From contig CM075991.1 of assembly GCA_038087875.1 (NCBI GenBank), positions 5,642,001 through 5,706,000 on the forward strand: 64,000 nt of DNA. Reading direction: 5' to 3'. The translations under genes were made by a program, and so were the position numbers. Numbering within the stretch: the first letter of the stretch is position 1; every line of letters begins with the position of its first letter. The notes under the pieces were generated by a model that had not been told where the DNA came from, ran no database searches, and saw only the letters and a list, made by a program, of their open reading frames with translations. The stretch is from Malacoraja senta. Lineage: Eukaryota. Positions 742 through 46,835 of the stretch are shown here, one piece after another.

Positions 742-2686
742 ATGGAATATCCAGCAATTTACTACATAGCCGGCACTTTCTACCCTGTACTTGTGGCGGT
801 TGGTATTCCTGGTAAGATACTGGGTCGAGTACAGAAAAACTGCGCGGAAATAGGCCCTTCGATCAACCGAGTCCGCGCCAACCAGCAATCCCCGCACACT
901 GACGGCACACGCTAGGGACAATTTACAATTGTACCAAGCCAATCAGCCTACAAACCTGTGCATCTTTGGAGTGTGGGCGGATACCGGAGATCCCGGAGAA
1001 AAACCCAAGAAGATCACGGGGAGAATGTACAAACTCCGTGCAGGATCAAACCCGGGTGGTTGGCGCTGTCAGGCAGCACATTTAACGCTGCGCACCGTGC
1101 CGCCCTGCGTGCAGTTCTCCTTCCATTCTGTATCTGCTGCTCTGAAGAATAGTCGCTTTGATACCCAGCCCAGATGCTGCCTCAGCTCACGAGTGTCTTC
1201 GGAAGGTTCAGGCTTCAGCGTCTGTTTTATTTCTGGCATTTTGTTCTTATTAATGTGTGGTTCTTTTGTCAATCAGGTCAGTTAATTTAGAGCTAATGTT
1301 TACATTTTGCAGCATGTAACCATATTCAGATTGTTTCTGGCGCATATTCTTCAAGCTCTGGGTCTTATTAATACAGACTTTTCCACCAAGACTCAGCGAA
1401 TGAGGAATGTATACATGTCTGTCAACATGCCTGTTGAATTATCACAACTAGCTGAAACACCTTCCGGGTTTTCGTTCTCTGATTCATTTGCCAGTTTTGA
1501 TTTTATGACTGCGTTTCCACTTGCTACGTCTGATATGTCGGAGGAAGCAGTTCTCCCTGAGTCTAATGCTCTCTGATACAAGTTAATTTCGATTGACGCA
1601 ACGACTCGAAATGACTGAGGTGATCAGTGCGTCGTAGACTTTAGGAGGCCGACTGTAAATTGCTGCAAATTACCGACACATCTGCTTCTTCGATCAGCAC
1701 CGCTCTAAGTATTTCTCCGAACGGAAATTTAGTAAACTGGATCAGGTTTTTGCTCATTGAAACTAACGTTTTTTTTGTTTCTTGCAGTTAATTTAACGGC
1801 GATTGTGATCCTCTCCCGGGGAAAATGTGGTCTCTCCAAATGCATCACCCGTTACCTAGTGGGAATGGCAACAGCGGATCTAATGGTAGTTGTCATTGTT
1901 GCTGCCATTGAACAAGTTAATTACATATACGTTTACGCTAGTTCCTTGCTCATTGCACCGGTTTGCGCTCTGACACTAATACTAAGGGTTGTAACAATCG
2001 ACTGTTCCGTTTGGTTCACCGTCAGTTTCACTTGCGATCGTTTTATGGCGATCTGTTGTCAAAAGCTACGTGAGCGCTACAGCAGCGAGAGAGCAGCGTG
2101 CGTGGTTATGGTGGCTGTGGCTGTCGTCAGCTGCGCCCGATCGTTTCCCTTTTACTTTGCCGTGGAGTCTTCTGCCATAATTGACAATGTGCCTTGGCGT
2201 TGCGCCTTCTCAGAGGAGTACGCCACTTTGTCGGTATGGAAAGGTTATGAGTTACTTGACAGCATCTTAGCACCGTTGTTACCTATCGGTTTAATCCTGT
2301 TGTTCAATGGGTTAACTTGCAGACATATCATAGCGGCCAATAGAGTTCGCAGACGACTTCGGAACAGCCATGAGAACCAGAAGGATACAGAGGTGGAGAA
2401 CCGGAGAAAATCGATGATTTTGCTCTTCGCTGTATCAGGCAATTTCATATTATTTTCGATACCCAATGTGGTTCATTCTCTGACATGGCAAACACGTAAT
2501 TTCTTTTACACGGATAGATATTTGAGCAGCTCGGTATATATCCTGCAGCAGTTTGGATTTATGTTGCAGATTGTCAGTATGTGCACAAACACGTGTATCT
2601 ATACACTGACACAGAGGAAATTCAGGGACCAGCTGAAGAGTGGAGTGAAATATCTACTCACATTGAATGGCCGATTATGTAGTTGA
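742..2686 (+). CDS. GPR139/GPR142-like class A GPCR, copy 1, intact; exon 1 742-811, exon 2 1788-2686; 322 aa
   Basis: Exon 1 encodes MEYPAIYYIAGTFYPVLVAVGIP and ends at donor G|GTAAGA. Branch point CTAAC (1763), a polypyrimidine tract and TTGCAG| precede exon 2. The phase-1 join gives GIPVNLTAIVIL (TM1). Seven hydrophobic segments; motifs ATADL (TM2), SVWFTVSFTCDRF (TM3), ECL2 Cys, NTCIY (TM7), QRKFR (helix 8). Confidence 0.9.
828..1105 (-). mobile_element. tRNA-derived V-SINE (HE1-like) in GPCR intron
   Basis: Minus strand starts GGGCGGCACGGTGCGCAGCG with a B-box-like GGGTTTGATCC, then V-domain-like GGAGTTTGTACATTCTCCCCGTG and a CR1-like tail GAAGGGCCT. Confidence 0.75.
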
Positions 2687-2721
2687 CTTGTAACTCTGAT
2701 AGCAACTTGGATGAAATTTCA

Positions 2722-2727
2722 AATAAA
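2722..2727 (+). promoter_or_regulatory. Candidate polyadenylation signal of GPCR copy 1
   Basis: AATAAA about 35 nt after the stop codon, present in all four copies. Confidence 0.45.
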
Positions 2728-4249
2728 TGTCTAACAATGCGTACCTTCGGTAAAATACCATAAAGTCAATGCAGGCCTGCGCTTGACAACCGAGAACTCG
2801 GTATACTCACGTCACGGTATTGGTCACGTTTGGAAAGTGTGGACACATTCCACCTGTTGCAGTTGTGATGTTGCATTGGTGGAATTATATTCCAAACCAC
2901 TGGACCTTTTTTTAAAAAATATTTTATTTTATTAGAAGTAAGTACAGTCATATGGCACCAAAGTGCCTAATATATATTTGCATAATACATTTTATGTCCA
3001 TCTTCTTATTTTTTTAAAATTATAATAAAAAGAATAAGAAAAATAAATTAGATAATAAAGAATAGAAAAACGTGAGATATATAGTGTCTGAAAAAGAAAA
3101 AAATGAGAATGAAAGAAGAAAGTTGAAGAAAAGAGAATAGGAAAAAGAGAGTAAAAAATACAAATAAAAAGAAATAAGATCAATATTTATAATCTTGACC
3201 ATCCCTCACCCAGTCCTGAAACATTTAGTTTCTACAATTATGTTGCACCATATGATACCAAAAAGGCGACAAATGGAGACCAAATCGTTAAGAATTGGTC
3301 TGATTTTTCTATTAGGAGGAATCGCATTTCTTCATGATGTGCGGTGTCCAACATGCTTGTGATCCACATTTTAAGCGTTGGTATTGGTGTATTTTTCCAA
3401 AATTTAAGTATTTTTGCTATTATTAAACCATAATTAAAAAATAGATGTTGAGATAAGTTCAATTTATTCCAATCTTCCATTACTCCAAATATAATCATTT
3501 CAGTTTTAGGTTCCATTCTTATCTTGAATAATTTTGTAAATATATCAAAAAATCACTCCAAAATCTATAACGTTTTATGCAGGAAACAAAAGAGTATGTT
3601 ATAGTTGCGTTTTGGGATAGACATTTATCACAAATGGGGGATATATTTGGATGGAATTTGTTCAATCTTGTTTTTGAATAATATAATCTATGTAAAATTT
3701 TAAATTGAATTAGATTATGTCTTGCATTAATCGAACATTTGTGTATATATATCAAATACTTTTCCCATGTAACCGTCGAAATTTTTATCATTAATTCCCG
3801 TTCCCACTCTTCTCTAAGTACCGTTGTCGATGGTAAATCTATATTTAAAATACTATTATATAAATATGATATTAATTTTTGTGAGTCAGCTTTAATATTC
3901 ATTGCTTCTTCCAATAAGTCAGAAGTTACTTTTTGATATCCTTGTATGTATTTCTTCATGAAATCGCAAATCTGAATATATTTAAAATATTGGTTATTTT
4001 TCAATTTACATTTTAATTGTAATTGTTGGAATGATAATAGATTTCCCATTTCATACATATCCCCGGTCCTTTTAATTCCTAAACTTTCCCATTGGTTATA
4101 TGTTTTATCAATAACAGATTGTTTAAATAAAGGGTTATTCGCTATAGGCGTTAACAATGATACATTTCTTAATTTTAAGGATAATTTTATTTGTTTCCAA
4201 ATTCTTATTGTATCGTGTATAATTGGGATCTTCTTATATATTGTGTTGT

Positions 4250-4465
4250 TGTGGCGGCTCCCAAGGGTCGTGCCATTATACCTGTCGAAGCCCTCGGCAC
4301 GGGAGTGGTTCAGTCCGGAGGCGGCCCTTAGCCAGAGGGTTTAAAGGCAGGGGTTTGGGTACCATCTTCCTCTCGTTTGGTCTTCCCTACAGCCGGGCGG
4401 ACGTAAATAAAGATGCTTCTCAAAACACTGGACTCGGTGCTTTCCTTTGAGACACACGCACCACA
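4250..4465 (+). mobile_element. Solo LTR (216 bp) inserted in L1 ORF2
   Basis: TGTGG...CCACA termini and a 4-bp TSD TTGT (4246-4249, 4466-4469). Contains TTTAAA and AATAAA. The paralogous site near 48400 is empty. Confidence 0.85.
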
Positions 4466-6546
4466 TTGTTCAGTTTTTTCGGAGAGAAGCGGATCGTTCC
4501 TATATTACAAGGAAAACAATCCTCTTTCTCCATTCTTATCCAGTCTGTCTGTTGGGTAGAACTGTCCAACCAATAAATTATATTCTTAATATGCACTGCA
4601 CAATAATAATACAAAATATTCGGGAGTGAGAATATTAGAGTCTAATTTTTTTAAGAAGTATTTTGGTATATATAATGGTATAGACTGAAATAGGTATCAT
4701 AATTGAGGTAGAAAGATCATTTTTATAGCATTTATTCTACCTATTAATGATAAAAAAAAGTGATTTCCAAAATTTAATCAACATATTGAGTTTATTTAAT
4801 AAAGGTATAAAATTAGCGTTGAATAATGCTTTATATTTTCTCGTAATTTGAATACCCAAATATTTAATTTTTTCTGTTGCAATTTTAAAGGGGAACTTCA
4901 GTAAAATTCCTCTATTAAATGTAATACATTTGGTATGCTCGTTTGTGACTTTGTAATATATAAAAGTATATCATCTGCATATAATGAAATTTTATTACTT
5001 AAGTCCCTAGTGTTGTAGCCGTGAATATTCGGATGCATTCTTATACTTTCAGCCAAAGGCTCTATCATAAGGGCAAATAGCAGGGGTGATAACGCACATC
5101 CCTGCCTATTGCCCCTTGATAATTGAAATTTTTGAGATAACATATTATTAGTTAATATTCTTGCCATCGGGTTATCATATAATAGTTTTAACCGTGTAAT
5201 AAAATTCTCTCCCATATTAATTTTTTGCAGTACTTTATATAAGTATTGCCACTCTACCTGATCAAATGCTTTCTCTGCGTCCAGAGAAATAATTGATATA
5301 TCTTCTTCCTCCCTTTTATGTGAGTACATTATGTTAAACAGGTGTCTCAAATTATTAAATGAGTATATTTTATGTATAAACCCCGTTTGATCAGGATTTA
5401 TCAGTTTACTAATATATTTGCTTAATCTTCTTGCTAAAGTCCTTGCTAAAATTTACTGGTCTGTATTTAAAAGTGATATAGCTCTATATGAGCCCGGATC
5501 GTCTAAATCTTTATCTTTTTTGGAATAAGCGTAATAGTTGATTCTACTAATGTTTCAGGTAGTTTATTTTCTTTAAAAGCATGAGTATCTAAATTAAATA
5601 AATAAGGAGTCGTTATCTCATAATTTTTTTTAATAAAATTCATTACTTAAACCATCTGGTCCTTTTACCATTTTTCAGCGATTTTATTGTTTCACCTATT
5701 TCTTCAATTGTAATTTGAGCTCCAAGTTCCTCTTGTTCCAAAAGGACAAGTTTTGGAAGATTACAGTTATTTACAAAAAAATTAATTTTACTATCTTTTA
5801 TTTTAGTTTTAGATGCATATAAATGTTGATAAAATTGAGCAAATCTATTGTTAATATTTTAGGTAGTATTAATAATTCACCTTCCTCTGATTTAATTTTA
5901 GTTATAGTATTTTCCTTTTCTTGTTTTTTCAATTGACGAGTTAAAAGCTTATGTGGTTTGTTACCAAATGCAAAATGTTCCTGTTGTGTAATTTGGAATA
6001 GTCTTATTACTCTTGCCGATAAAATTCGATTAAGTTTAAATTTCAGTAACATTATCTTATTATGTTTATCTGTAGTGGAATCTTTGGCATTATCTAACTC
6101 TAACTGTCTAATTTCTTGTTCTAACAGCATGTGTTCTGTCTTATTCTTTTTATTTTGAAAAATTTGATATGAAATTATAATTCCTCTAATAAATGCCTTT
6201 AAAGTTTCCCATAATAAAGAAGGCGAAGTACCTGGTGTATCATTTGTCTCAAAAAAAAAATTAATTTGTTGTTTTAAGTATTGATAACCTTGTAAGTCAT
6301 TTAAAATATGTGTATTAAACCTCCAAAAACAGTTTTTACCCGGCATTCCCTCAAATTTTACTGAAAATGTCAATGGAGAGTGATCAGAAATACTACTAAT
6401 GTGGTATTTTGGATTAATTGTATATGGCATTCATTTCATATCCACTAAAAAATAATCAATTCTTGAATAAGTTTATGTACCGAAGAGTAAAACGACAATT
6501 CCCTTCCTACTGGATTAGCAGATCTCCATACATCTGTTATATTAGT

Positions 6547-6550
<4 letters not shown>

Positions 6551-6630
<80 letters not shown>
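6551..6630. repeat. (TA)40 microsatellite inside L1 ORF2
   Basis: Perfect TA run; the paralog near 50565 has only TTTTTTATATATGTATT. Confidence 0.95.
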
Positions 6631-6633
<3 letters not shown>

Positions 6634-8460
6634 GTTCACTAGTCTTAGATTTTAAATTACTCCTCCTTTGTTTTACTGATTTGTCTAAGTATGGATCTAA
6701 AACACAGTTGAAGTCCCCCACTATTATCACATTTTGGTAATTAAACTTTAATATTATATCTATAATTTTATCAAAAAATTGGGGGTTGTCAAAATTCGGA
6801 GCGTAAGTATTTATCATAGTTAGTGGGGTTGCATAAATTTCTCCCGAATCTATAATATACCTTCCCCCTTTATCTGATATAGTATTCTTTAATTTGAAAG
6901 GTATACCTTTTCGAATATGAATAGCCGTACCTCTAGATTTTGAAGTAAATGACGAATAGCATGTTTGACCTATCCACTTCGCCTTTAATCTCATTTATGT
7001 TTGTTGTTTCATGTGGGTTTCCTGTAAAAACATTATGTCGCTTTTCAAAGATTTTAGTTGAGCAAAAATTTTACCCCTCTTTATTGGTTCATTGGCACCC
7101 CTTATATTCCAACTACAGAATGTGATTCCTCCATTCTTTATTTGTCTATCGTCTTGCATTATATATCAAAATAGTATTCCTGAATCATATGGTGCAAGCA
7201 AATACCTCAGAGTTATGGGTGTTGGGTGGTCATCCCAAGTTTTTTAGATTTATATTACATCTCCTTCTTGAAAAGTACCTTAATAAAAGAGAGAAAAAAT
7301 GTGATATAAAGTTGAATACAAAAAAAATAAGCAAATACAAGTCTTTATAGTGATTTTAAAAAAAGTGATGTTAAGGTATCTAACAAAAGATACCTTAAAG
7401 GCAAGTAGCCACCTAAGGTGGCGAAACATTTATGGACTTCCGTTGATGTTGTTTTACATTGAGCTCCAATCCCTTATAAAAAGCGACAGACCGTTTCATA
7501 TCTTGTTTATTCTTATTTAAATTTATCAAACTGGCACCAGTGAAAACCGAAAAAATTCAGAAAGAGATATAAAAAATAAAAAACCAAATATAAATATAAA
7601 TATAAGTATATATGCCTTTCCAATTTATCTAACCTTAATCTAGTCTAAACTTTACCATAAATGTCCACCCAAGATTCTTACGTAATAACCCATCCTTTAA
7701 CTACCAAACAAGCAGGTACCAATGGGTTAAACCAAACCTCATTCCTGGATCTTTTCCAGGTTTATGCTGCGCCTAACTCCTTCCCACACAAGAAAAGTAG
7801 GTTAGTAATGTTATAAACATTTTGGTTAGTTACTATTTATAAGCATATATCGTTTATAAGTATATATCATTAATATTAATTCATTTCCTTTTTAAATATA
7901 TAAAATCATAATTATATACACTCCCATTATCTCCTTCCCCGTCTCATGGTTTATTCATGATTTGTTCATTTTTACTACATACATTCACGAGTAATTAGTA
8001 TTATTAAATTTGTTAAAATAATTGGTTAATTATAATTAGAATATAATGGTTAGATATTTTCTTAAATCAACAGTTTTTATATTACAATTAGTATTATCTC
8101 GTTCCATGTCCATTATACATTCCCTCATTACTTCTGTATCTTCAACGTCAATTCAACGTCAACGTCAATCTTCAACACACCACAAATGTTTTTTTTGTAG
8201 CCTCTTCCTGAACCTCCAATTGAACTTGAACTAACGTATCAATGGACTTATCAAAACTTATCAAAAGACTTGGAATCTGATGAAGAATATTCAGATGAAG
8301 ATCAGATGTAATGTAAACAAATAAATTGGGGAAATAAATGATTATATAAAGTTTTATTTTAATGTCGATCGTTTCACTGTTTATTTGGTCAAATTATTTA
8401 AACAATTAGTGAATTACTTGTGATAATGACGTGCTGGTGAATGACAGTGCGACAGTCCAA

Positions 8461-8631
8461 CCACCCATCCACACATATATACATACATGCATACATACAC
8501 ACATACACACACACATCCATCCGTACGCACACTTCCGTGCATGCACACACACACACACATACATTCACACATACATCCGCACACACACACATCCACACAT
8601 TCATCCGCACGCAGACATACATGTACACATC
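8461..8631. repeat. Degenerate CA/CATA/CATC simple repeat (continues 11290-11410; paralog about 52400-52690)
   Basis: Low-complexity tract split by the Gypsy insertion. Confidence 0.9.
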
Positions 8632-8904
8632 TGTAAAGCATCTATAACGAGGCATCGTTACTTTACTATTTTTATTCATACTGGAGCATTACATATTGCA
8701 CTAGCTGTACGTGGTCTGTCACAGGAACTAGAGAGCGATCTGTGGGTGGGGAGGTTGTAGTTATACTTGTGATATGGGGAGTGGTTAGTAGGTATGAGGT
8801 CACTATGTTAAAGGCACATGCAAATATCATCTACATCCTTCCCCTCCGAATCGACAGGCAAATACAATGGTGACAGGGCGACCACGGCTCATGCGCTAGG
8901 ATGG

Positions 8905-10176
8905 TTAAACAAAATCGCCATAGCGGACAGGCGGTTTCACAAGACGTCCCGACCGGGTTCGCGTCTCGCCATCCTCCCTTCCGGCAGGAGGAAGAGGCAC
9001 CGATGGGGACAGACGAACCTGAAAGGGGGAAACGGGAGGAGACGGAGGAGACCGCGGCACCAAACCCGGAGGTGATGCGGGATCCGGAGCGGGCAGTGCG
9101 CGGGCAGGCGAGCGAGGACTAGTCGGAGCAGGGTGGGATGGAAGGAGTTGAGGAGGTGCAGAACGTTGCATGTTAGGAAGGACGGGCAGAGCAACGCCCG
9201 GACGCGAAGCCGGCAGTGGGGGAGCAAAGGGATCCGCGGCAGGAGGACGCGGCTCGTTGACGAGCCGAAGGTGCTGGCGGGACCGTCGGTAAATGGCTCC
9301 CGCATGGTCGACGAGATAAGACCTGGGCGACCCCGCAGAGCCGACGACGGTGGCGAGCTTGGAGTGACCGGAAGTGGTCTGCATACGGACAACTTGACCG
9401 GGGAAGAGGCGCGGCAGCGGGTGGCAGGACCTGTCATGGGAACGCTTTTGGACATTGTGCCTGAAGGCAATGCGTTTCTGAACCGCCGCAGGTGGGAGGA
9501 CGGAGGGTATGAGGGAGCGCTGGGCCACCGGGAGCGGGAGCCTGGTAGCGCGAGACATGAGCCGCTGAGCAGGGGAACCCATGGCAGAGTCGCGGGAAAT
9601 GTTGCTGAGGTTGAGGAGGACCAGATGGAAGTCGGAGTTAATGCCACCACACTGTTCCAGCAGGTGCTTCGCGCTGCGGACGGCACGCTCGGCCAGACCG
9701 TTGCTTTGCGGGTACTCCGGGCTGCTGGTGAAATGGCGGAAGTTCCATCTGGAAGCGAACGCTTTAAACTCGGAGCTCGTGAACTGGCTGCCATTGTCCG
9801 ATTGCAGGCTGGCCGGGGGGCCAAAAGTGCCAAAATGAGGGTACAACCTGTCGATGATGGCCGAAGAGGTTAGGGAGCGCAGCCGGTCGACCACAAACCA
9901 GCTGGAGTAGGAGTCAACGAGAACCAGGAAGTGTTTGCCTCGCCACTCGAAAATGTCGGCGGCAAGCGCCATCCAGGGCAGTTCGGGCGCGGGCTGCTGC
10001 AGAAGCGGCTGACGCTGCTGGTGGGGGGCGAGGCTGTTGCAGGTGGAACACGAGGAGACCCTCTCCCGGATGTATTTGGCCATGTCCGACCAATAGAACT
10101 GGCTCCTGGCGAGAGACACGGTGGCTTCGGCCCCAGGATGACCGCGGTGAGCGACTTGAAAATAGTGGTCGTGCAT
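8905..10176 (-). CDS. Gypsy integrase (open, 423 aa)
   Basis: HHCC domain (HRGHPG...CSTC), DDE core (ADIF, SDNGSQF, NGLAERAV) and Mag-type tail TRSGRLVKPP. Confidence 0.85.
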   Translation of the reverse strand: MHDHYFQVAHRGHPGAEATVSLARSQFYWSDMAKYIRERVSSCSTCNSLAPHQQRQPLLQQPAPELPWMALAADIFEWRGKHFLVLVDSYSSWFVVDRLRSLTSSAIIDRLYPHFGTFGPPASLQSDNGSQFTSSEFKAFASRWNFRHFTSSPEYPQSNGLAERAVRSAKHLLEQCGGINSDFHLVLLNLSNISRDSAMGSPAQRLMSRATRLPLPVAQRSLIPSVLPPAAVQKRIAFRHNVQKRSHDRSCHPLPRLFPGQVVRMQTTSGHSKLATVVGSAGSPRSYLVDHAGAIYRRSRQHLRLVNEPRPPAADPFAPPLPASRPGVALPVLPNMQRSAPPQLLPSHPAPTSPRSPARALPAPDPASPPGLVPRSPPSPPVSPFQVRLSPSVPLPPAGREDGETRTRSGRLVKPPVRYGDFV

Positions 10177-10988
10177 CGCCGCGGAGCAGCGACAGGCTTA
10201 CCACGGGAGCGACAGGCCGCAGCAAAATGGTTCAATTTCTTGCAGATATTACACGTTTTACCCAAGGCTGGGCACACATTGTATTGATGAGTGGTGAAGT
10301 TGCAATTAGGGCACCTTTCCCGGGTACCTCCCCCGGGAGCAGTACCGAACCCCGGGGCATGTCCCCCTCGAGCAGCGAGCGACACCGGGGGCCGCGACCG
10401 GGGCGTGTTCATCAGATGACTGGGAGTGCTGGCAAAGTTAATCGCCTGTTCAGCCGGTGACACCGCTGAGGTGACAGCTTCAGCTAAGCGAGTGGCGTGC
10501 ATCGCATCGTTAAAAGTCAGATCCGGCTTGCGCAGAAGTTCGGCCCTGAGCTTATCATCGCGGAGACCGTAAACTAGAAGGTCCCTGATAATCTCCTCGG
10601 GGGTCAACGTGTGGAGGCGGCAGCGCCTGGCCAGGTGGCGCAGCGCAGAGACATAGTTCTCAGCATTTTCCCCAGGGAGCTGACGCCACGCGAACAGTTT
10701 AAAACGTTCTAAGATGCAGTTTGTTGGGATATCACAAATAGCATCAAACTTAGCCACCAGACATACCGGGTCCCGAGCTGATTGTCCAGCAGCGTAGACG
10801 AAGAAGTCAGAGCGAGTCAGGGCCTCGGGACCAGCCAAGTTGAGAAGCAGAGAGGCTTTGAGATCAGCGGTGGCGGCAGGATGAGCGATCGTGACATAGT
10901 GTTCAAAGTCACGTTTGAATACGTCCCATCGAAGGGCGATGTCTAAATCGAAAACGAGCACATCAGGCTTACGGGCAGAAGAGGCCAT
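9870..10988 (-). CDS. gag: Gypsy Gag with two CCHC knuckles; reads out of frame past the deletion junction
   Basis: MASSARKPD start; CPNCNFTTHQYNVC and CNICKKLNHFAAAC zinc knuckles. Confidence 0.8.
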   Translation of the reverse strand: MASSARKPDVLVFDLDIALRWDVFKRDFEHYVTIAHPAATADLKASLLLNLAGPEALTRSDFFVYAAGQSARDPVCLVAKFDAICDIPTNCILERFKLFAWRQLPGENAENYVSALRHLARRCRLHTLTPEEIIRDLLVYGLRDDKLRAELLRKPDLTFNDAMHATRLAEAVTSAVSPAEQAINFASTPSHLMNTPRSRPPVSLAARGGHAPGFGTAPGGGTRERCPNCNFTTHQYNVCPALGKTCNICKKLNHFAAACRSRGKPVAAPRRCTTTIFKSLTAVILGPKPPCLSPGASSIGRTWPNTSGRGSPRVPPATASPPTSSVSRFCSSPRPNCPGWRLPPTFSSGEANTSWFSLTPTPAGLWSTGCAP

Positions 10989-11417
10989 AACAAAGAAATG
11001 GGAGGGCGGGGGAAACAAAAAAACTGGGACAAAATTAAATGATAAACCGATAGACAGGAGGCGCAAGGTAAGTGGTTTGACACCATGTAAAGAATCTATA
11101 ACGAGGCATCGTTACTTTACTATCTTTATTCATACTGGAGCATTACATATTGCACTAGCTGTACGTGGTCTGTCACAGGAACTAGAGAGCGATCTGTGGG
11201 TGGGGAGGTTGTAGTTATACTTGTGATATGGGGAGTGGTTAGTAGGTATGAGGTCACTATGTTAAAGGCACATGCATATATCATCTACAACATCCATGCA
11301 CACATACATCCACACACATACATCCACACATACATCCACACATACATCCACACATCCATCCATCCACACATTCATACACACTTAAATCCAAACATCCACA
11401 GATACACTTTTGATACG

Positions 11418-12600
11418 TAATAATAATAATACATTTTATTTGTACAGCGCTTTTCAAGGACTCAAAGTCGCTTTACATGGAGAGTCAAGAACAAAATAAA
11501 ATAGAACAAAATAGGGCAGTAAGACAGAGATGAAAAGGGGAGGGGGACATGGGACTAAGGGTACGCAGAGGTGAAGAGATGGGACTTGAGGCGGGACTGG
11601 AGGATGGTGAGGGACTCAGAATTTCGGATCAATTGTGGGAGGGAGTTCCAGAGCCTGGGAGCTGACCTGGAGAAAGCTCTGTCTCCAAAAGCGCAGAGGT
11701 TGGATTTCGGAATGGAGAGGAGACCGGCTGATATGGATTTGAGGGACCGTGAGGGTTGGTAGGGGGAGAGGAGGTCAGTGAGATAAGGGGGGGGGGCAAG
11801 TGCTTGAGGGCTTTGTAAGTGAGGACCAGGATTTTGTAGATGATCCGGTGGGAAATGGGAAGCCAGTGAAGTTTTTTGAGAACTGGGGTGATGTGCTGCC
11901 CGGATTTGGTGTGGGTGATGAGTCGGGCGGCTGCATTCTGGACCAGTTGGACTCGGTTGATGTTGCTGGAATTAATGCGAAAGAGAAGAGAGTTACATTA
12001 GTCCAGTCAGGAGGAGATGAAGGCATGGATGAGTCTTTCAGCAGCGGGGGGTGTGAGAGAGGGTCTGATTTTGGCAATGTTGCGGAGGTGAAAAAATGAT
12101 GTTTTGACAACATGGCGGATGTGAGACTCAAGGGAGAGGGTTGAGTCAAAGATCACGCCAAGGTTGCGGGCCTGTGGAGATGGCGAGACAGTGGTGCCGT
12201 CAACAGTGAGAGTGGGGTTGCTAATTTTAGTAAGTCTTGATTTGGCGCCAATTAGGAGAAATTCTGTTTTGTTACTGTTTAATTTAAGGAAGTTGAGTTG
12301 CATCGAAGATTTGATGGCTGACAGGCAGGAGTTGATATGGGAGAGAGAGGGTGGTCGGGGGACTTGGTGCTGAGACAGATCTGGGTGTCATCAGCATAGC
12401 AATGGAAGTCCACATTGAAGTGACGTCGTATATGACCAAGGGGGAGGATGTAGATGATGAAGAGGAGGGGACCGAGAACGGAGCCTTGGGGAACGCCTTG
12501 AGTGACAGTGGCTGTGGCAGAGGTGTGGTTATGGAGAGAGATGAAGTGGGATCGGTTGGAAAGGTAGGAACGGAGCCAGCTGAGAGCAGAACCTTCGTGC
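11418..12600 (-). mobile_element. 5'-truncated L2 LINE
   Basis: RT fragments (LKLNSNKTE, RNLGVIFD, LIHAFISS) and an L2-type 3' end TGTAAAGCGACTTTGAG...AATAAAATGTATTATTATTA on the minus strand. Confidence 0.85.
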
Positions 12601-12644
12601 CAAGGTCTTTAAGTCTGGTAAGCACAGACACACACACACACACA

Positions 12645-13449
12645 AACTAGATACTCAAACAAAGCAACACTTTTAGGGTTATTTTAGGTTAAAGGTAATA
12701 GCCCTCATTTGCAAAGGCACCATCGGTGTGTCTCTAGCATAAATATGGGCTCATTGTAGCTTAAAATGAATACTCATCGAGTAAACATCAGAGCATTCGA
12801 TTCTTGGTCAGGATTGACATTCACATCAGAAATAAGACAGGTCTCTTACAGGTCTGTCACCCAGCCTTGCACTGCCCCAGTCACACTATGGCAGTTACCC
12901 CCACTCTCCCCACTATGGCAGTCAATGGGGTTCAGTAAACGGGGGAACCCAGAGGATCTGTCCTGACCCTTAAATTAGGCAGGTTCGTGCGCCCTTAAAA
13001 CCTGGGACCTCTGCTGCAGTCTCATTAAAATTTCCTATTAAAGCGACAGGAAGATGCCTTGCAGGACTGCCCCCCGGCCTAGAACTGCCCCAGCCCCACT
13101 GTGGCCGTGACCCCAACTCTGCACACTGGCAGTCAGTGAGGTTCTGTAAAGAGAGGAAACCCCAAGAACTGCCCTCACCCATTAATTAGGCTGGTTCAGG
13201 AGCAGGACCGTTGCGACAGTGTCATTAAAAAAATACTCACAATTATATTCATCATATTATTTTTATATTATAATATTATACTTAGTTATATATGATTACA
13301 GTCATATTTGTCATATATATATATATAGGTATAATAATATATAGTTATATTTCATCTATATCTGTGGAAAATCTCATGTAGTCCCGTGAGGTGGGTCACG
13401 AAAATCGATTTCTAGACACATTTTTGATGCTCGGCCCACAGCCGAGCAT
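12645..13449. repeat. Unclassified element with a diverged ~210-bp tandem duplication and a terminal hairpin (partial paralog 60309-60834)
   Basis: 12861-13030 resembles 13071-13230. Hairpin ATGCTCGGC-ccaca-GCCGAGCAT abuts the env fragment. Confidence 0.4.
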
Positions 13450-14430: not shown

Positions 14431-14433
14431 CTT

Positions 14434-30560: not shown

Positions 30561-30564
30561 GAAT

Positions 30565-33270: not shown

Positions 33271-33288
33271 AGAATGTTTAAGAATTAT

Positions 33289-36780: not shown

Positions 36781-36789
36781 GCTGCTCAG

Positions 36790-37823: not shown

Positions 37824-40800
37824 TATACTTCGCAGTCACGTGAGTGACTACGTGAAGAACCCGCCAGCCCGCAGGCGCGTATTACGTCTAACGCATGGCG
37901 CAGCGACTAAGTTTAAAGACCTCCAGGTAAGTTCTCGAACTTAGCTTGCGGTTGTTTATCTTCGTTCTTATTACAGGTTAAGAACGAACAACTATGGACA
38001 AGGCGGGGGTGAAGTCCAGACGGGCCGCGAGAAAAACTGCTACGGAAGACCGCGGCAGTGCGATTAGCGGGCGGCCGTCGGTTTCACCATCACGGTCACT
38101 GACAGCACAGCCAGCGATTTCGGACGCGGTGCCCGTAGAAAGCACCTTGGCTACCCAGAGAGTTGGCAAGTCAAAAAATAGTCCGACAGACCGGTTGACT
38201 CGCACGAGCCCAGTCGGGAGGGTTCGCCTCCTTCAGCAGGGAACGTCCTCGGACATCTTTCCCGTATGGAGCATCTAATGGAGGAGATGCTCCAATATGA
38301 TATACTCTTTGGACGGGATTCATGTCAGCGCGGGTCTCTAGCGCCCGCGGCTGCGCCTGGTGCAGGGCTGCATTGTATCTCCCTATCTAAGGAAGGGAGT
38401 GTAGGTCATCAGTCCTGGGTTGGCTCACACTACAGTGGTATGTCGAGGGAACGCTACAAGACACAAGATCTGCGTGAAGCAGAGATACCCACTATGGTGT
38501 CGACATTTGCATTGCCGGCGCAAATCGACGAGCCACTGGACGAATAACTAGCGGCCTGCATCAATTACCTGGCTTCTCACCAGCTACGGGAAGAGGTAAT
38601 GATGGAGACGGCCACGAAATACCACACACCCAGCAACCGCGCTTCGCTAAGAGTTCTGGCCGTAAATAGCTCCATTTGTAGTTACATGGGTGGAGGCATA
38701 AAGATTCAGGAGGTTAAACTCCAAAGGATCCTGAGCCTTCTGGCATCCGGGGTCAAGGCCTTCGCCAGGTCAATGGACGGGAGCTCCCTGTCTGAGGTTC
38801 AACCGGACGCATTGGCACTGATGTGCAATGCACATTTTCAGATAAATTGCTTTTGCAAGAATGCCATTCGTCCTGTCCTCAATCCCAAGTTTGCTGGTTT
38901 ATGCAGGTCGAGCAATGTGCAGCCGGCCAATTATTTATTTGGGGAAGACCTGTCCAAACAAGTCAAGGACCTGTAATCTACCAGCAACAGATGGTCTACA
39001 GGAGCCAGTACCAGCTCAAGGACCGAAAGAACCAGCCAAAGGTCTTTTATAGGACAAGGTTCAGGCCGGCCGACATCGATGATGCGCAGTTGGCGCACTC
39101 CAGTACCCTTACCCCTCAAACATCGAGGGCGGATATAAACATCGCAGATCCATCAATATCCATGGAGGTAGGTGGGTCTGGTTCTCTATGGAACATGCGG
39201 TGTGTGGGTCAATCACAAGTTGGTGGGAGATTACGTTTCTTTTTGAATGAATGGCGTTCGATAACATCGGATATGTTCATACTGCACAGTATAGATGATT
39301 TCCAAATTGAATTTTCTGATTCACTTCCACCCACACAGCATACTCCAAACCGTACTTTGGTCCTTCACAACAAGACGGTTTGGATGTACAAATTGAAATT
39401 CAATCATTATATCCAAAAGTGTAATTGAGAAGTCGAATCATGAATCTCACCAATTTGTGTCCAATATATTTACAAAACAAAAGAAAGATGGGGGATGCCG
39501 AGTCATCCTGGACTTGACCCGACTCAGCACCTTTGTGCAGTACAGACATTATAAAATGGAAAATGTTGTTACTGCCAAACAATTGATTTCCAAAGGACGT
39601 TATATGGCATGCATCGATCTTAAAGATGCATACTATTCGGTGCCTATTCATAAGGATCACCGGAAATACTTAAAATTCAACTGGATGGGGCAGCTTCGGC
39701 AGTTTAAAGCATTGCCTAATAGGTTAACTTCAGCTCCCAGATTATTCACGAAATTATTAAAACCAGTTCTTGCTTTTTTAAGAGCTCAAAAACACATAGT
39801 AATGGCGTACTTGGACGATATCCTTATTATAGGCAAGACTCTGGAATTGTTTTTTTCAGCGGTCTGAGCCACCAAGCTCTTATTTGAGCGATTGGGATTT
39901 CTCATCCATCCAGTTAAATCCAAGTTGACACCATCCAAAGTTATGGAATATTTGGGATTCACTATTAACTCTGTTCATATGTCTGCAACTCTGCCTTGAA
40001 GCAAGATATTGGAGTTAATAGAGTGCTGTAATTACCTCTTAACGAAGCAGCAGCCTTCCATCCGACAAGTGGCCAGTTTAATTGGAAAATTAAATAATTG
40101 TATAAGGGGTAAGAGTGTTGTAAAAACAAGCCTGAAGGCGTTGTGTCTCAATGCAAGGAGTATTTGTAATAAGGTGGATGATTTGAATGTGCTGATAGAT
40201 ATTAATGACTATGATATAGTTGGGATCACGGAGACATGGCTCCAGGGTAACCAAGGCTGGGAGCTGAACATCCAGGGATATTCAATATTCAGGAGGGATA
40301 GACAGATAGGAAAAGGAGGTGGGGTAGCATTGATGGTTAGAGAGCAGATTTACGCAATAGAAAGGAAGAACATTAGCTTGGAGGATGTGGAATCGATATG
40401 GGTAGAGCTGCGAAACACTAAGGGGCAGAAAATGCTAGTGGGAGTTGTGTACAGGCCACCTAACGGTAGTAGTGGAGTTGGGGATGGCATCAAACAGGAA
40501 ATTAGAAATGCGTGCAACAAAGGTAAAACAGTTATAACGGGTGACTTAAATCTACATATAGATTGGGTGAATCAAATTGGCAAGGGTGATGAGAAAGAGG
40601 ATTTCTTGGAATGTATGCGGGATAGTTTTCTAATCCAACATGTAGTGGAACCAACGAGAGAGCAGGCTATTCTAGATTGGGTATTGAGTAATGAGGAAGG
40701 GTTAGTTAGCAGTCTTGTTGTGCGTGGCCCCTTGGGCAAGAGTGACCACAATATGGTTGAGTTCTTCATTAGGATGGAGAGTGATATTGTTAATACAGAA

Positions 40801-43765
40801 ACAAGGGTCCTGAACTTAAAGAAAGGTAACTCTGAGTGTATGAGAAGTGAGTTGGCCAAGATAGACTGGCAATTGATTCTTAATGGGTTGACGGTAGATA
40901 TGCAATGAAAGGCATTTAAAGACCGTATGGATGACCTAAACAATTGTTCATCCCAGTTTGGCAAAAAAATAAATCTGGGAAGGTAGTGCATCCATGGATA
41001 ACAAGGGAAATCAGGGATAGTTTCAAAACAAAAGATGAAGCGTACAAATTAGCCAGAAAAAGCAGCCTTCCTGAGGACGGGGAGAAATTCAGAGTCCAGC
41101 AGAGGAGGAGAAATGGCTTAGTTAGGAAAGGGAAAATAGGTTATGAAAGAAAACTGGCAGGGAACATAAAAACTGACTGCAAAAGCGTTTATAGATATGT
41201 GAAGAGAAAAAGATTAGTTATAACAAATGTAGGTCCCTTGCAGTTAGAAACAGGTGAATTGATCATGGGGAACAAGGACATGGCAGACCAATTGAATAAC
41301 TACTTTGGTTCTGTCTTCACTAAGGAAGACATAAATAATCTGCCGGAAATAGCAGGTGACCGGTGGTCAAATGAGATGGAGGAACTGAGTGAAATCCAGG
41401 TTAGCCAAGAAGTGGTGTTAGGGAAATTGAATGGATTAAAGGCCGATAAATCCCCAGGGCCGGATAGGCTGCATCCCAGAGTAGTTAAGGAAGTAGCCCC
41501 AGAAATAGTGGATGCATTAGTGATAATTTTTCAAAACTCTTTAGATTCTGGAGTAGTTCCTGAGGATTGGAGGGTAGTTAATGTAACCCCACTTTTTTAA
41601 AAGGGAGAGAGAAAACGGGGAATTACAGACCAGTTAGTCTAACGTCGGTAGTGGGGAAACTGCTAGAATCAGTTATTAAAGATTGGGTAGCAGCACATTT
41701 GGAAAGTGGTGAAATCATTGGACAAAGTCAGCATGGATATATGAAAGGTAAATCATGTCTGACGAACCTTATAGAATTTTTCGAGGATGTAACTAGTAGA
41801 AAGGATAAGGGAGATCCAGTGGATGTGATATATCTGGACTTTCAGAAGGCTTTCCACAAGGTCCCACATAAGAGATTAGTATACAAAGTTAAAGCACACG
41901 GTATTGGGGGTTCAGTATTGATGTGGGTAGAGACTTGGCTGGCAGACAGGAAGCAAAGAGTAGGAGTAAACGGGTCCTTTTCACAATGGCAGGCAGTGAC
42001 TAGTAGGGTACCGCAAGGCTCCGTGCTGGGACGCCAGCTATTTACGATATATATTAATGATTTGGACGAGGGAATTGAATGCAACATCTCCAAGTTTGCG
42101 TATGACACGAAGCTGGGGGGCAGTGTTAGCTGTGAGAAGGATGCTCGGAGGCTGCAAGGTGACTTGGATAGGCTTGGTGAGTGGGCAAATGCATGGCAGA
42201 TGCAGTATAATGTGGATAAATGTGAGGTTATCCACTTTGGTGGCAAAAACTGGAAAGTAGACTATTATCTGAATGGTGGCCGATTAGGAAACGGGGAGAT
42301 GCAACGAGACCTAGGTGTCATGGTACACAAGTCATTAAAAGTAGGCATGCAGGTGCAGCAGGCAGTGAAGAAGGCGAATGGTATGTTAGCATTCATAGCA
42401 AAAGGATTTGAGTATAGGAGCAGGGAGGTTCTACTGCAGTTGCACAGGGTCTTGTTGAGACCACATCTGGAATATTGCGTACAGTTTTGGTCTCCTAATC
42501 TGAGGAAAGATATTCTTGACATAGAGAGAGTACAGAGAAGGTTCACCAGACTAATTCCTGGGATGTCAGGACTTTCATATGAAGAAAGACTGGATAGACT
42601 CGGTTTGTACTCGCTAGAATTTAGAAGATTAAGGGGCGATCTTATAGAAACGTACAACATTTTTAAGGGGTTGGACAGGCTAGATGCAGGAAGATTGTTC
42701 CCGATGTTGGGGAAGTCCAGAACAAGGGGTCACAGTTTAAGGATAAGGGGGAAATCTTTTAGAACCGAGATGAGGAAAACATTTTTCACACAGAGAGTGG
42801 TGAATCTCTGGAATTCTCTGCCACAGAAGATAGTTGAGGCCAGTTCATTCGCTATATTTAAGAGGGAGTACGGTGTGGCCCTTGTGGCTAAAGGGACCAG
42901 GGGGTATGGAGAGAAAGCAGGTACAGGATACTGAGTTGGATGATCAGCCATGATCATATCGAATGGCGGTGCAGGCTCGAAGGGCCGAATGGCCTACTCC
43001 TGCACATATTTTCTATGTTTCTATGTTTCTAAATTAGTGGCTGCTTTCCCAGCTGTACAATTTGGACCTTTGTATTATCAACAATTACAATGAGAAATGG
43101 TGCAGGCACTCAAACATCATTTAGGTCACTTTGACAGGCCCATGCAATTGACGGCTGAAGCCATTTCTGAATTACAGTGGTAGAAGTCCAATATTCAGCA
43201 TTGCTCTAGCAATATTTCGGTTGATAGTCGACCAGTTATTTTACAAACGGATGCCAGTGCTCTGGGATGGGGCGCTACTGACACCATCTCTAGCTGCGGT
43301 GGCAGATGGAACATGCATGAGCTATCATTATTTCAGTTACATGGTGTTAATTATTTGGAGTTACTGGCAGCTCTCTGTGGATTGAGGGCTTATTGCGGGT
43401 ATATGCACATCTGCATGTTCGATTACAGATTGATAACACCACAGCGGTGGCATACATAAATCACATGGGTGGAATCAAGTCAGTATCCTGTGATAAATTG
43501 GCTAACCGCATTTGGCACTGGTGCATTGCAAGATATATTTGGGTTTCAGCTACCCACCTGCCAGGTAGGTTTAATACGGTGGCGGACAGTAGGTCATGCA
43601 AATTCAATGACAACACCGAATGGATGTTGAATCATAGGGTGTTTAAGGATATTATTTCTAAATATGGAACACAGGATATAACTTTGTTTGCATCCAGGCT
43701 AAATCATCCGTTACTGAAGTATGTTGCATGGGAACCAGACCCAGGGGCTGTAGCGGTAGATGCAA
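37824..43765 (+). mobile_element. DIRS-type retrotransposon (gag-like, RT, RNase H, start of methyltransferase-like region), split by CR1 and 3'-truncated
   Basis: KKDGGCRVILDL, IDLKDAYYSVPI, YLDDILI, QTDAS.LGWGA, QIDNTTAVAYINHMGG, HLPGRFNTVAD and WEPDPGAVAVDA motifs. Terminal hairpin AGTCAC-gtga-GTGACT. Tyrosine recombinase not seen. Confidence 0.85.
40093..43030 (+). mobile_element. CR1 (HER1-like) LINE with nearly complete ORF2, inserted in the DIRS RT/RNase H
   Basis: TSD AAATTA (40087-40092, 43031-43036); removing the insert restores LIGKLVAAFP. Endonuclease and RT ORFs are broken by a stop and frameshifts; (TATGTTTC)n tail. Confidence 0.92.
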
Positions 43766-44095
43766 TCCAAACCACTTTTGTCTCATCTGCAAACTTTCTA
43801 ATCTTGCCATGTACATTCTCATACTGTAATGTATATACATGCGAAACAGAAATGGGCCAAGCATAGCACTCTGAGGCACACCACGGGCCTCCAGTCCGAG
43901 AAACAACCTTCCACTATTACCCTCTGTTTCCTTCCATGAAGCCAATTGTCTATACATCCGGTTATTTTTCCTTGAATCCCATGCGATCTAACCTTCCAAA
44001 GCAGCTTATCATGTGGAACTTTATCAAATGTTTTGCTGAAGTCCAAATACACTGTATACAACATCTGCAGCTCTGCCCTCGTCAACATTTTTGGT
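43765..44095 (-). mobile_element. Old CR1 RT fragment at the left edge of unit C
   Basis: YLDFSKTFDKVPH motif. Confidence 0.75.
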
Positions 44096-44875
44096 CGCAT
44101 CTTAAAATATGAATATTTCCTATCCTGTGTAACCTATCCCTCAGAATGCTCTCTAGTAACTTTGCAACTGCAGATGTTAAGTTCACTGGCATGTAGTTCC
44201 CAGAATTTTCCATCTTTCCTTTCTTGAGAGCTAAACTCCCCACGTGATTTCTTTTAACAGCCGCTCCGTATTCCTCACAAGTGATTCCAATATCTGCTTG
44301 GATGTGTTGATATCATTGGAAGTCAGGAAATGCATCCATTGGTTAATTAGCATCGTCAGTGACTGTTGATCCTACGAATAATAACTTCCGAGTGGCAAGA
44401 TGGTGGCGTGAATCATTCCTTTCAAGGAAGACGTATGTCGAACGTTACTTCCCAAACTAAGATCCTTATTGCTTGATTTGACTAAATCACACTGTGCAAC
44501 TAATGTTATTAATGTTACATATTTGAAGTTCATTGTTCAGGTTAGAAATAATATTGTTCGCAGGAATAATTACATTTAAGAAACCTTTAACCTTGTGTCA
44601 TAGAAATAGAGTTTTCAACATTCCCTTTTATAAAATGTGACAAAAACATTAAAATTAACAGTTCGTGTAATCCCTCGAAGACAGAAATTCCTTGCGCAAT
44701 GGAAAAAAACAGTTACGGTTGATGTTTGTTAAGTGGGCTGAGGGTGATGTGCCAGAGGTCACGCTAATTGTCTCAGAGTAATGTCCTCTTTTGTATAAAT
44801 CTGTGCTAAATCAATCACCACTACAGATGGACAGTTGGAAAGTTATGTGTGATTGTTCGCTGCTTCACATGGAAG

Positions 44876-46835
44876 ATGGAATATCCAGCAATTTACTGCA
44901 TAGCCGCCACTTTCTACCCTGTACTTGTGGCGGTCAGTATTCCTGGTAAGATACTGGGACCAGTACGTTTAGTTTTGTACAGAAAAACTGCGCGGAAAGA
45001 GGCCCTTCGATCAACCGAGTCCGCGCCAACCAGCAATCCCCGCACACTGACGGCACACGCTACGGACAATTTTCAATTGTACCAACCCAATCAGCCTACA
45101 AACCTGTGCATCTTTGGAGTGTGGGCGGATACCGGAGATCCCGGAGAAAACCCAATAAGATCGCGGGGAGAATGTACAAACTCCGTGCAGGATCAAACCC
45201 GGGTGGTTGGCGCTGTCAGGCAGCACATTTAATGCTGCGCACCGTGCCGTACTGCGTGCAGTTCTCCTTCCTTTCTGTATCTGCTGCTCTGAAGAATAGT
45301 CGCTTTGATACCCAGCCCACATGCTACCTCAGCTGACGAGTGTCTTCGGAAGGTTCAGGCTTCAGAGTCTGTTTTATTTCTGGCATTTTTTTCTTGTTAA
45401 TGTGTGGTTCTTTTGTCAATCAGGTCAGTTAATTTAGAGCTTATGTTTACATTTTTTCAGCATGTAACCGTATTCATATTGTTTCTGGCGCATATTCTTC
45501 AAGCTCTGGGTCTGATTAATACAGACTTTTCCACCAAGAGTCAGCGAATGAGACATGTATACATGTCTGTCAACATGCCTGTTGAATTATCACAACTAGC
45601 TGAAAAACCTTCCGGGTTTTCGTTCTCTGATTCATTTGCCAGTTTTGATTTTAGGGCTGTGTTTCCACTTGCTAGGTCTGATATGCCTGAGGAGGCAGTT
45701 CTCCCTGAGTTTAATGCTCTGTGATACGAGTTCATTTCGATTGACGCAACGACTCGAAATGACTGAGGTGATCAGTGCATCGTAGACATTAGGAGGCCGG
45801 CTGTAAATTGCTGCAAATTACCGACACATCTGCCCCTTCGATCAGCACCGCTCTAAGTATTTCTCCGAACGGAAATTTAGTAAACTGGATCAGGTTTTTG
45901 CTCATTGAAACTAACGTTTTATTTTGTTTCTTGCAGTTAATTTAACGGCGATTGTGATCCTCTCCCGGGGAAAATATGGTCTCTCCAAATGCATCACCCG
46001 TTACCAAGTGGGAATGGCAACAGCGGATCTAATGGTAGTTGTCATTGTTGCTGCCATTGAACAAGTTAATAACATATACGTTTACGCTAGTTCCTTGCTC
46101 ATTACACCGGTTTGCGCTCTGACACTAATACTAAGGGTTGTAACAATCGACTGTTCCATTTGGTTCACCGTCAGTTTCACTTGCGATCGTTTTATGGCGA
46201 TCTGTTGTCAAAAGCCACGTGAGCGCTACAGCACCGAGAGAGCAGCGTGTGTGATTATGGTGACTGTGGCTGTCGTCAGCTGCGCCCGATCGTTTCCCTT
46301 TTACTTTGCCGTGGAGCCTTCTGTCATAATTGACAATGTGCCTTGGCGTTGCGTCTTCTCAGAGGAGTACGCCACTTTGTCGGTATGGAAAGGTTATGAT
46401 TTACTTGACAGCATCTTAGCACCGTTGTTACTTATCGGTTTAATCCTGTTGTTCAATGGGTTAACTTCCAGACATATCATAGCGGCCAATAGAGTTCGCA
46501 GACGACTTCGGAACAGCCATGAGAACCAGAAGGATACAGAGGTGGAGAACCGGAGGAAATCGATGATTTTGTTCTTCGCTGTAGCAGGCAATTTCATATT
46601 ATTTTCGATACCCAATGTGGTTCATTCTCTGACATGGTAAACACGTAATTTCTTTTACACGGATAGATATTTGAGCAGCTCGGTATATATCCTGCAGCAG
46701 TTTGGATTTATGTTGCAGATTGTCAGTATGTGCACAAACACGTGTATCTATACACTAACACAGAGGAAATTCAGGGACCAGCTGAAGAGTGGAGTGAAAT
46801 ATCTACTCACATTGAATGGCCAATTATGCAGTTGA
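44876..46835 (+). pseudogene. GPR139/GPR142-like GPCR, copy 3; exon 1 44876-44945, exon 2 45937-46835; premature stop
   Basis: CAA>TAA at 46638-46640 removes ECL3, TM7 and helix 8. Also L>Q in TM2 and P>L in TM5. Splice sites are intact. Confidence 0.9.
44968..45250 (-). mobile_element. V-SINE in intron of copy 3
   Basis: Paralog of 828-1105. Confidence 0.75.

Follow-up and report, generated by a model that had tools for sequence, protein, structure and literature searches.

The locus analysed here, positions 5,642,001-5,706,000 (forward strand) of contig CM075991.1 in the Malacoraja senta assembly GCA_038087875.1, raises the question of whether a local array of GPR139-like genes represents GPR139 itself or a separate repertoire of ligand detectors. 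All coordinates below are relative to this 64,000-nt stretch, referred to as the window, and all features are on its plus strand. The window contains two-exon class A GPCR genes arranged in nested duplications: two intact genes encoding 322 residues each, a pseudogene with a nonsense codon, and a fragment of a 3' end. Coordinates and reading frames thereby return the same four paralogues as the original prediction. Copy 1 is composed of a 70-nt coding exon 1 (742-811), which encodes the N-terminus and the first part of TM1 and matches the N-termini of database models, a 976-nt phase-1 GT..AG intron (812-1787), and an open coding exon 2 (1788-2686); its 322-residue product has no internal stop. 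The intron contains a high-copy repeat at ~860-1075. A TATA-like box with a putative promoter role is seen at 660-666, ~80 nt upstream of the copy 1 start, and a TATA-like motif likewise lies upstream of copies 2 and 4. An out-of-frame ATG is located 7 nt upstream of the start in copy 1 (735-737), where it opens a 26-codon uORF overlapping the main start, and in copy 4 (at 44869), and is absent in copy 2. A 26-bp upstream satellite is absent from the 0.7, 3.0, and 2.0 kb of upstream sequence tested. Copy 2 is intact and the best preserved, with coding exons at 24995-25064 and 26054-26952. It is followed at 27938-28384 by the 3' fragment of a further paralogue. The fragment covers approximately residues 249-322 (the last ~75 codons, 27938-28163, with the stop at 28161-28163) and then a 3' flank without the LINE piece that follows all three full copies. 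The coding exons of the pseudogene, copy 4, are at 44876-44945 and 45937-46835, the latter carrying Q258* (TAA at 46638). The proteins of the full copies are 92-95% identical pairwise.

The predicted 70-nt first coding exon is present in copies 1, 2, and 4, and the database models of relatives agree with it. N1.50 is residue 25 in the window proteins, and the exon 1 call is supported because N1.50 is also placed at residue 25 in relatives' models (37 of 117 Met-initiated ones). An N-terminus free of glycosylation sequons, also predicted, was borne out: the sole N-x-S/T, at residues 25-27, is inside TM1, and a sequon occurs in only one of 39 short-N-terminus models of relatives. The encoded proteins belong to class A, with a Pfam 7tm_1 score of 78 bits against a cut-off of 30.5 and with N1.50, D2.50, DRx, the C3.25-ECL2 cysteine, P5.50, P6.50, and NxxxY all found. 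7tm_1 was the only Pfam family above cut-off; Srx was weak and below it, and the window protein had no Srw match at E<=0.01. The AlphaFold model of exon 2 has a pLDDT of 79.8 and a TM of ~0.7 to peptide GPCRs, and the fold search returned generic class A matches that do not discriminate between families.

Segmental duplication of transposon-rich DNA has contributed heavily to the local array. By self-BLAST, copies 1 and 4 occupy equivalent positions in the two units of a larger segmental duplication, the first spanning 42-16340 and the second 44176-63725, with blocks 94-99% alike and transposon insertions that differ between the units. Copy 2 is carried by a 3.3-kb duplicated block (24638-27925) that is 95% alike to 386-3661, and the remaining window is LINE and LTR-type debris. 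How the three full copies are related to one another depends on whether the intron or exon 2 is compared (chi-square p=0.001), a sign of mosaicism. False duplication during assembly, which the original prediction had raised against itself, is unlikely because the copies differ by ~3-5% in sequence and in transposon content, and because the gene, with both exons and most of the intron, is present in four public data sets of DNA that come from three organisms. The contigs of these data sets diverge at the same places, and their loose ends have acceptor sites of other paralogues at the same place. No exon 1-exon 2 joint occurs among the joints listed for them (15 of 55). The sequencing runs listed as carrying the gene include none from RNA, which says nothing about expression.

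Such an architecture could mean that the family grew mainly as a by-product of unequal crossing-over and segmental duplication where the DNA is rich in transposons, with a few copies working and most drifting under relaxed selection. The transposon debris and the 16-20 kb segmental duplication fit this account, and so does the condition of the local genes, as of three full copies one is dead and one drifting, with a fragment in addition. Copy 4 is the dead one: besides the nonsense codon, it has altered the near-invariant residues C37, L47, L117, P189, L236, and S240. Copy 1 is drifting, with six nonsynonymous and one synonymous private changes and the upstream ATG. Among the window copies, clear purifying selection is seen in copy 2 only (11 nonsynonymous versus nine synonymous private changes, ratio ~0.37). 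Between copies 1 and 2, dN is 0.025 versus ~0.05 in the upstream and LINE flanks (p=0.009), a test of constraint whose outcome hinges on the flank chosen as the neutral reference, because the intron (1.6% divergence) diverges less than dN (2.5%).

The family at large tells against long-term drift. A cluster search at E<=1e-20 assigned 1,497 of 3,470 candidate clusters (90% identity) to it. Among the best 120 of these clusters, 115 are named, all of them elasmobranch (sharks or rays) from 17 species, and a single species contributes up to 20. The 21 more distant representatives looked up comprise 19 elasmobranch members, one chimaera member, and one unnamed. Single-species clades of up to seven occur in the family tree. 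Copies 1 and 2 are sister to a skate protein (100/97) deep within the family, nested among elasmobranch paralogues with the same two-exon layout. Paralogues that are ~47-62% identical retain open frames, often of exactly 322 residues, across sharks and rays, with the chimaera member nested inside; conservation is 90% or higher at 93 of 298 positions; and intracellular loops evolve more slowly than in a single-copy control (mean log2 ratio -0.64). Because open frames, conserved positions, and slow intracellular loops persist, long-term drift does not fit, and we regard the by-product account as improbable, even though partial sequences are common among the 150 representatives listed at 50%. Proteins from short contigs were considered as spliced transcripts and rejected, since those inspected start internally or read through the intron.

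The window genes are thus members of a very large, rapidly duplicating family in sharks, rays, and chimaeras, and its single-species clades, local pseudogene and fragment, and duplications are those of a birth-and-death multigene family. The proposal of a lineage-expanded family holds as to its size in cartilaginous fishes, but the lineage is not strictly confined to them: amphibians and sturgeon have a relative in single copy. We found no paper on the expansion of this family in literature searches that were incomplete for subscription journals and judged mostly from titles and abstracts. The supplement files searched, in part, for the skate genome, whale shark, nurse shark spleen, and catshark cartilage papers gave no match, and the main text of the zebra shark paper has no mention of GPCRs.

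Is the family GPR139 under another guise? The RefSeq label 'probable G-protein coupled receptor 139' carried by family members derives from GPR139. Were the genes Trp/Phe or endogenous-peptide receptors of the GPR139/GPR142 type, amplified for dosage or tissue subfunction, the copies would share a ligand. Consistent with that, among PDB entries human GPR139 matches the family profile best (E 5e-16), and GPR139 and the family both lack Pro7.50 and Trp4.50. The GPR139/GPR142 gene likewise has two exons (PMC7318219). The match is nevertheless far more distant than that of any orthologue: on the family profile GPR139 reaches 62 bits, amphioxus-like and invertebrate receptors reach 82-105, and the amphibian lineage described below reaches 170-204. 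Copy 1 has no match to GPR139 at E<=1e-5. Copy 2 matches human GPR139 with 30 bits (E 3e-6), ranking below an angiotensin receptor, whereas human and zebrafish GPR139 are reported to be 70% identical (PMC7318219). The pocket described for Trp/Phe in GPR139 consists of F3x33, H5x43, W6x48, R6x51, and N7x38 (PMC5430874). None of these five residues is kept in the window copies, with F109, H187, W241, R244, and N271 of GPR139 replaced in copy 2 by V, D, S, Y, and F, respectively. The family majority keeps one of five: the 120-member set retains only W6.48 (97%), which is Ser in all three full copies. Family pockets also vary among members, including charge swaps at 2.57, 2.61, and 3.32, and the family is multi-copy rather than single-copy as GPR139 and GPR142 are. 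With low similarity, replaced pocket residues, and many copies, the earlier claim that the family is not the GPR139 orthologue stands as judged from sequence, and a shared GPR139-type ligand appears very unlikely.

The closest relatives bear on the origin of the family. In a tree taken without true GPR139 and GPR142 sequences, the family and a single-copy GPR139-like gene of amphibians and sturgeon form one clade (100/99). This gene, the P0232 lineage (Xenopus tropicalis P0399, Acipenser P0415), shows 29% full-length identity to copy 1 and has ICL2 and ICL3-TM6 motifs in common with the family. It differs from the family in having one 90% cluster per species among 21 non-shark matches and a near-invariant pocket (0.25x mean entropy). 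Like GPR139 it has F3.33, W6.48, K6.51, and N7.39, so that most Trp/Phe-binding residues are kept there and largely replaced in the family; this retention is a further point for a shared ligand. Another GPR139-like lineage, likewise single-copy (coelacanth P0233, catshark P0278), occurs in ray-finned fishes, amphibians, and reptiles. It falls in the same wider chordate clade (100/99 versus the invertebrate outgroup), is RefSeq-named 'GPR139', and is 27% identical to copy 1. Unlike the family, it is low-copy in sharks with a conserved pocket, and it was used as control. A tree joining the family with this second lineage was not rejected (AU p=0.063). From the aromatic 3.33, Trp6.48, basic 6.51, and Asn7.39 kept in the amphibian gene, we infer that the ancestor was a GPR139-like amino-acid-type sensor. 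After duplication, the basic 6.51 anchor would have been lost in the family and the pocket re-tuned copy by copy, with common G-protein coupling kept.

Predicted pocket variation was compared between 120 family sequences (mean identity 0.62) and 115 sequences of the single-copy control (0.61), using assumed pocket positions and an assumed TM4 anchor. Pocket entropy is 1.31x the mean in the family and 0.54x in the control, an orthologue set in which a conserved pocket is expected. Pocket site rates, computed from 60+60 sequences and normalised within each set, are 1.23 and 0.49, respectively. In relative terms, pocket positions change ~2.8-fold faster in the family. Pocket sites are faster in the family at 21 of 26 positions (p=0.001), and their shift exceeds that at outer non-pocket helix sites (p=0.027). 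Pocket differences are 1.25x the mean in same-species sister pairs (n=24) versus 0.91x in cross-species pairs (n=13; p=0.045), and 0.55x in control pairs (n=33). The pattern gives indirect backing to the view of the family as a ligand-detection repertoire. Within the family, pocket rates do not significantly exceed those of outer-helix sites nearby (p=0.19), a point in favour of the by-product account, and extracellular loops are as fast as the pocket, or faster; because of both, loss of constraint across the outer half is almost as good an account of the data as selection for new ligands.

A birth-and-death repertoire for ligand detection is the best reading of these sequences, and a chemosensory role is the likely candidate. 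That this rapidly duplicating class A family, distinct from GPR139, serves to detect many different external chemicals we hold to be about evenly balanced with its contrary. The putative site of expression is most likely an epithelium of sensory or barrier type, in the nose, mouth, skin, or gut. The same features could belong to an immune or barrier-sentinel repertoire in leukocytes, mast-like cells, or nociceptors that senses microbial or damage products, comparable to MRGPRs or formyl-peptide receptors. Tandem expansion, a variable pocket, a short unglycosylated N-terminus, and pseudogenes fit it equally, and the data do not separate it from a chemosensory role. MAS1 and its relatives are described as absent in cartilaginous fishes, leaving that role open (PMC8455134). 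The nearest relatives of the family are, however, amino-acid and neuropeptide-type receptors, and we consider the immune alternative unlikely. As for the chemosensory repertoire, we propose more tentatively that it is an overlooked major vertebrate chemoreceptor family, larger than any other class A sensory repertoire in sharks, rays, and chimaeras, and derived from a GPR139-like sensor that is single-copy in amphibians and sturgeon. This would overturn the ~50-receptor view of smell and taste in cartilaginous fishes. Whatever the function, many divergent members per genome under one automatic name change the GPCR census of a group described as GPCR-poor (PMC8455134). A sensory function would bear on the noted mismatch between large shark olfactory organs and tiny receptor repertoires (PMC10116579) and would make this a vertebrate chemoreceptor family that arose independently. 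Work on ligands and expression could conveniently start from the single-copy Xenopus/sturgeon relative.

ORs combine a variable pocket with a conserved intracellular face, as the family does. OR, TAAR, V1R/ORA, V2R/OlfC, and T2R genes also resemble it in birth-and-death evolution, clustering, and a short N-terminus, but the family has no profile membership among OR, TAAR, V1R, V2R, and T2R, 7tm_1 alone being above the Pfam cut-off. The shark repertoires published cover four olfactory families only, with 34 V2R/OlfC and four to nine of each other family in catshark, where V2R-type microvillous cells already explain the olfactory neurons, a point against an olfactory role (PMC10116579). The Srw-like and FMRFamide/MIP-receptor-related expansions of protostomes belong to the same broad receptor group as the family: GPR139/142 are reported to have a common origin with the receptors for MIP, FMRFamide, and myosuppressin (PMC8514136), and the atlas neighbours of the family include Srw-bearing clusters. 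In Aplysia, clustered, lineage-expanded receptors of chemosensory organs include rhinophore candidates (PMC2700072), and 29 of 90 candidate chemoreceptors are Srw-type (PMC3963977). The protostome expansions differ in being independent; in the tree, receptors of invertebrates lie outside the clade of chordates, and the window protein has no Srw match at the threshold given above.

Splicing and translation of the window bear out the original prediction of four GPR139-like paralogues, two intact, one with a nonsense codon, and one fragment. All lie on the plus strand. Copy 1 (742-811 joined to 1788-2686) gives an open frame of 322 residues with only one of the five acceptor offsets tried, and the frame of copy 2 (24995-25064 and 26054-26952) is unbroken too. 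Copy 4 (44876-44945 and 45937-46835) carries the stop Q258*, and a 3' fragment (27938-28163) codes for approximately the last 75 residues. The full copies are 95.5-97.2% identical in coding DNA, and the modelled window receptor shows a conventional seven-transmembrane fold. All three have Ser at position 6.48, where 97% of the related receptors of cartilaginous fishes (hereafter the family) have Trp. An out-of-frame ATG lies 7 nt 5' of the start in copies 1 (735-737) and 4 (44869-44871) and is absent from copy 2; it could dampen translation of copy 1.

Self-comparison of the window places copies 1 and 4 in equivalent slots of one segmental duplication (42-16340 vs 44176-63725), whose blocks are 94-99% alike and whose transposon insertions differ, and copy 2 within a 3.3-kb duplicate. 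A short LTR-retrotransposon-like element (8905-11111, minus strand), with a gag-like frame and a Pfam integrase, apparently without reverse transcriptase, occurs only in the first unit. Only the second has a near-full-length L1-like element (52737-58938, minus strand) with a Pfam endonuclease domain, an ORF2-like region broken by stops, and an ORF1-like frame of 379 residues without Pfam match. Two pieces similar to DIRS-type elements (about 38200-39870 and 43351-43866; reverse transcriptase match and RNase H-like text) are split by a CR1/L2-type LINE (about 40000-42934), and a 19-bp minisatellite (35265-35414) has eight copies with 96% matches. Apart from the receptor genes, the long frames of the window resemble retrotransposon remains, with Pfam matches in four of the eight scanned. 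Four public data sets of DNA, drawn from three organisms, contain exon 1, exon 2, and the greater part of the intron; their contigs differ from each other at the same places. Hence, neither the gene nor its presence in several copies is particular to one assembly.

Relationships among the full copies are discordant between intron and exon 2 (p=0.001): copies 1 and 2 are closest by intron (1.6% difference), copies 1 and 4 by exon 2, which suggests gene conversion or unequal crossing-over. Private nonsynonymous and synonymous changes number 11 and 9 in copy 2 (ratio 0.37, p=0.03), 6 and 1 in copy 1, and 15 and 4 in copy 4, where they include the stop and changes at residues 92-99% conserved across the family. 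Copies 1 and 2 have a dN of 0.025, lower than their dS and the divergence of their upstream and LINE flanks (each about 0.05; p=0.009), although their intron differs by only 1.6%. These data indicate that one copy is constrained, one uncertain, and one dead.

With exon 2 as query and clusters at 90% identity, 1,497 of 3,470 candidate clusters pass E<=1e-20. The closest match is a skate protein, 87% identical. Among the best 120 clusters, the 115 named ones are all from sharks or rays (17 species) and are called 'probable/putative GPR139'; among these 120, one electric ray contributes 20, one devil ray 18, and one horn shark 18. The 21 more distant representatives looked up comprise 19 elasmobranch, one chimaera, and one unnamed protein; the make-up of the 1,497 is known for these two sets and inferred for the rest, a minority of which may belong to single-copy GPR139-like lineages. 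As the chimaera member is placed inside the family in the tree, part of the radiation is likely older than the shark-chimaera split.

Copy 1 alone does not match human GPR139 at E<=1e-5, and copy 2 scores 30 bits. Against solved structures the family profile has GPR139 as top match, at 62 bits; it scores 170-204 with an amphibian lineage, 152-182 with a coelacanth protein and a teleost relative, and 82-105 with amphioxus-like and invertebrate receptors of good coverage. Human and zebrafish GPR139 orthologues are 70% identical (PMC7318219), and a part in Trp/Phe binding is assigned to F109, H187, W241, and N271 by mutagenesis and to R244 by modelling (PMC5430874). None of these residues is retained in the window copies, and only the Trp in the family majority. 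The top structural match notwithstanding, a GPR139-type ligand common to all paralogues is thus very improbable. The two further predictions, a lineage-expanded family and one not orthologous to GPR139, stand: the family is almost certainly large, expanded, and separate from GPR139.

RefSeq files its genes under a single automatic name. A literature search, with most subscription journals beyond its reach, returned no paper on a cartilaginous-fish GPR139-like expansion. In the parts available, a whale-shark genome paper stresses the scarcity of GPCRs in cartilaginous fishes (PMC8455134), a shark olfaction paper counts just four small receptor families (PMC10116579), and a catshark atlas reports no GPCR among the 50 brain-plus-olfactory genes that rank highest for abundance and specificity (PMC11979771), a list that says nothing on family expression because V2Rs are missing from it too. 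Expanded orphan GPCR repertoires are already known as a kind; the shark family itself appears undescribed.

Searches seeded with distant matches surfaced several low-copy GPR139-like lineages. One, including coelacanth P0233 and catshark P0278, spans sharks, ray-finned fishes, coelacanth, amphibians, and reptiles, and none of the 120 listed of its 145 matches carries the name of a mammal or bird. Another (P0232/P0399/P0415) comprises 20 amphibian clusters and one sturgeon; the other four of its 25 matches are all from the shark family, and no amniote or teleost is among the 25. The P0233/P0278 lineage and one represented by P0261/P0275 are both conserved in jawed vertebrates and named 'GPR139' throughout in RefSeq; two gene models of such lineages are labelled TMEM183A isoforms, hinting at linkage. 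In an IQ-TREE analysis (LG+G4, 52 rows other than GPR139 and GPR142, 321 columns), 28 family and five amphibian/sturgeon rows form one clade (100/99). The family alone is monophyletic in 50% of bootstrap trees, with the amphibian/sturgeon rows sister or nested, and a tree in which the family joins the coelacanth lineage instead is not rejected (AU p=0.063). F3.33, W6.48, K6.51, and N7.39 of the amphibian gene align directly with F109, W241, R244, and N271 of GPR139, and the single-copy amphibian/sturgeon receptor is a candidate third aromatic-amino-acid sensor. Since basic 6.51 and aromatic 3.33 also occur in other low-copy lineages and an amphioxus-like protein, we infer an ancestor with an amino-acid-type pocket, which the family would have lost. 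The expansion appears confined to cartilaginous fishes; the lineage as a whole extends beyond them.

Pocket variation was compared between 120 family proteins and 115 single-copy control proteins of the P0233/P0278 lineage. The pocket is represented by 26 class A cavity positions, with the TM4 anchor assumed and four TM1 positions left out because exon 1 is poorly modelled. Overall, the sets are alike (mean identity 0.62 vs 0.61; mean entropy 1.18 vs 1.19), whereas pocket entropy is 1.54 in the family vs 0.64 in the control. Tree-based rates from 60 random rows per set give a pocket rate relative to the mean of 1.23 vs 0.49, with 21 of the 26 positions faster in the family (p=0.001), and the shift exceeds that at 58 outer helix sites that lie outside the pocket (p=0.027). 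Intracellular loops evolve slower in the family than in the control. With unnamed records excluded and sites not independent, pocket difference is 1.25 times the average in 24 same-species sister pairs and 0.91 times in 13 two-species pairs (p=0.045), and 0.55 times in 33 control pairs. These comparisons show that the family has been freed from the constraint of the ancestral ligand and has maintained its signalling surfaces.

We give about even chances that the family is a sensory repertoire, in which the conserved intracellular face would serve G-protein signalling, each paralogue would have a differing ligand, and the role would be detection of water-borne or surface chemicals. Against new ligands, the pocket has no significant rate excess over neighbouring outer sites inside the family (p=0.19; p=0.06 in 62 members that are more distant), and the extracellular loops match the pocket in rate, so the pocket data do not prove selection for them. 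Such rates would also suit a largely neutral amplification, which is unlikely, the slow intracellular loops speaking against it; an immune or barrier repertoire, which a variable pocket would fit as well, is similarly unlikely. For the sensory reading there is a parallel, by analogy only: in protostomes, related receptor groups are likewise expanded as candidate chemoreceptors, according to PMC2700072, PMC3963977, and PMC8514136, and the Atlas neighbours of the shark family are consistent with a relation to these groups.
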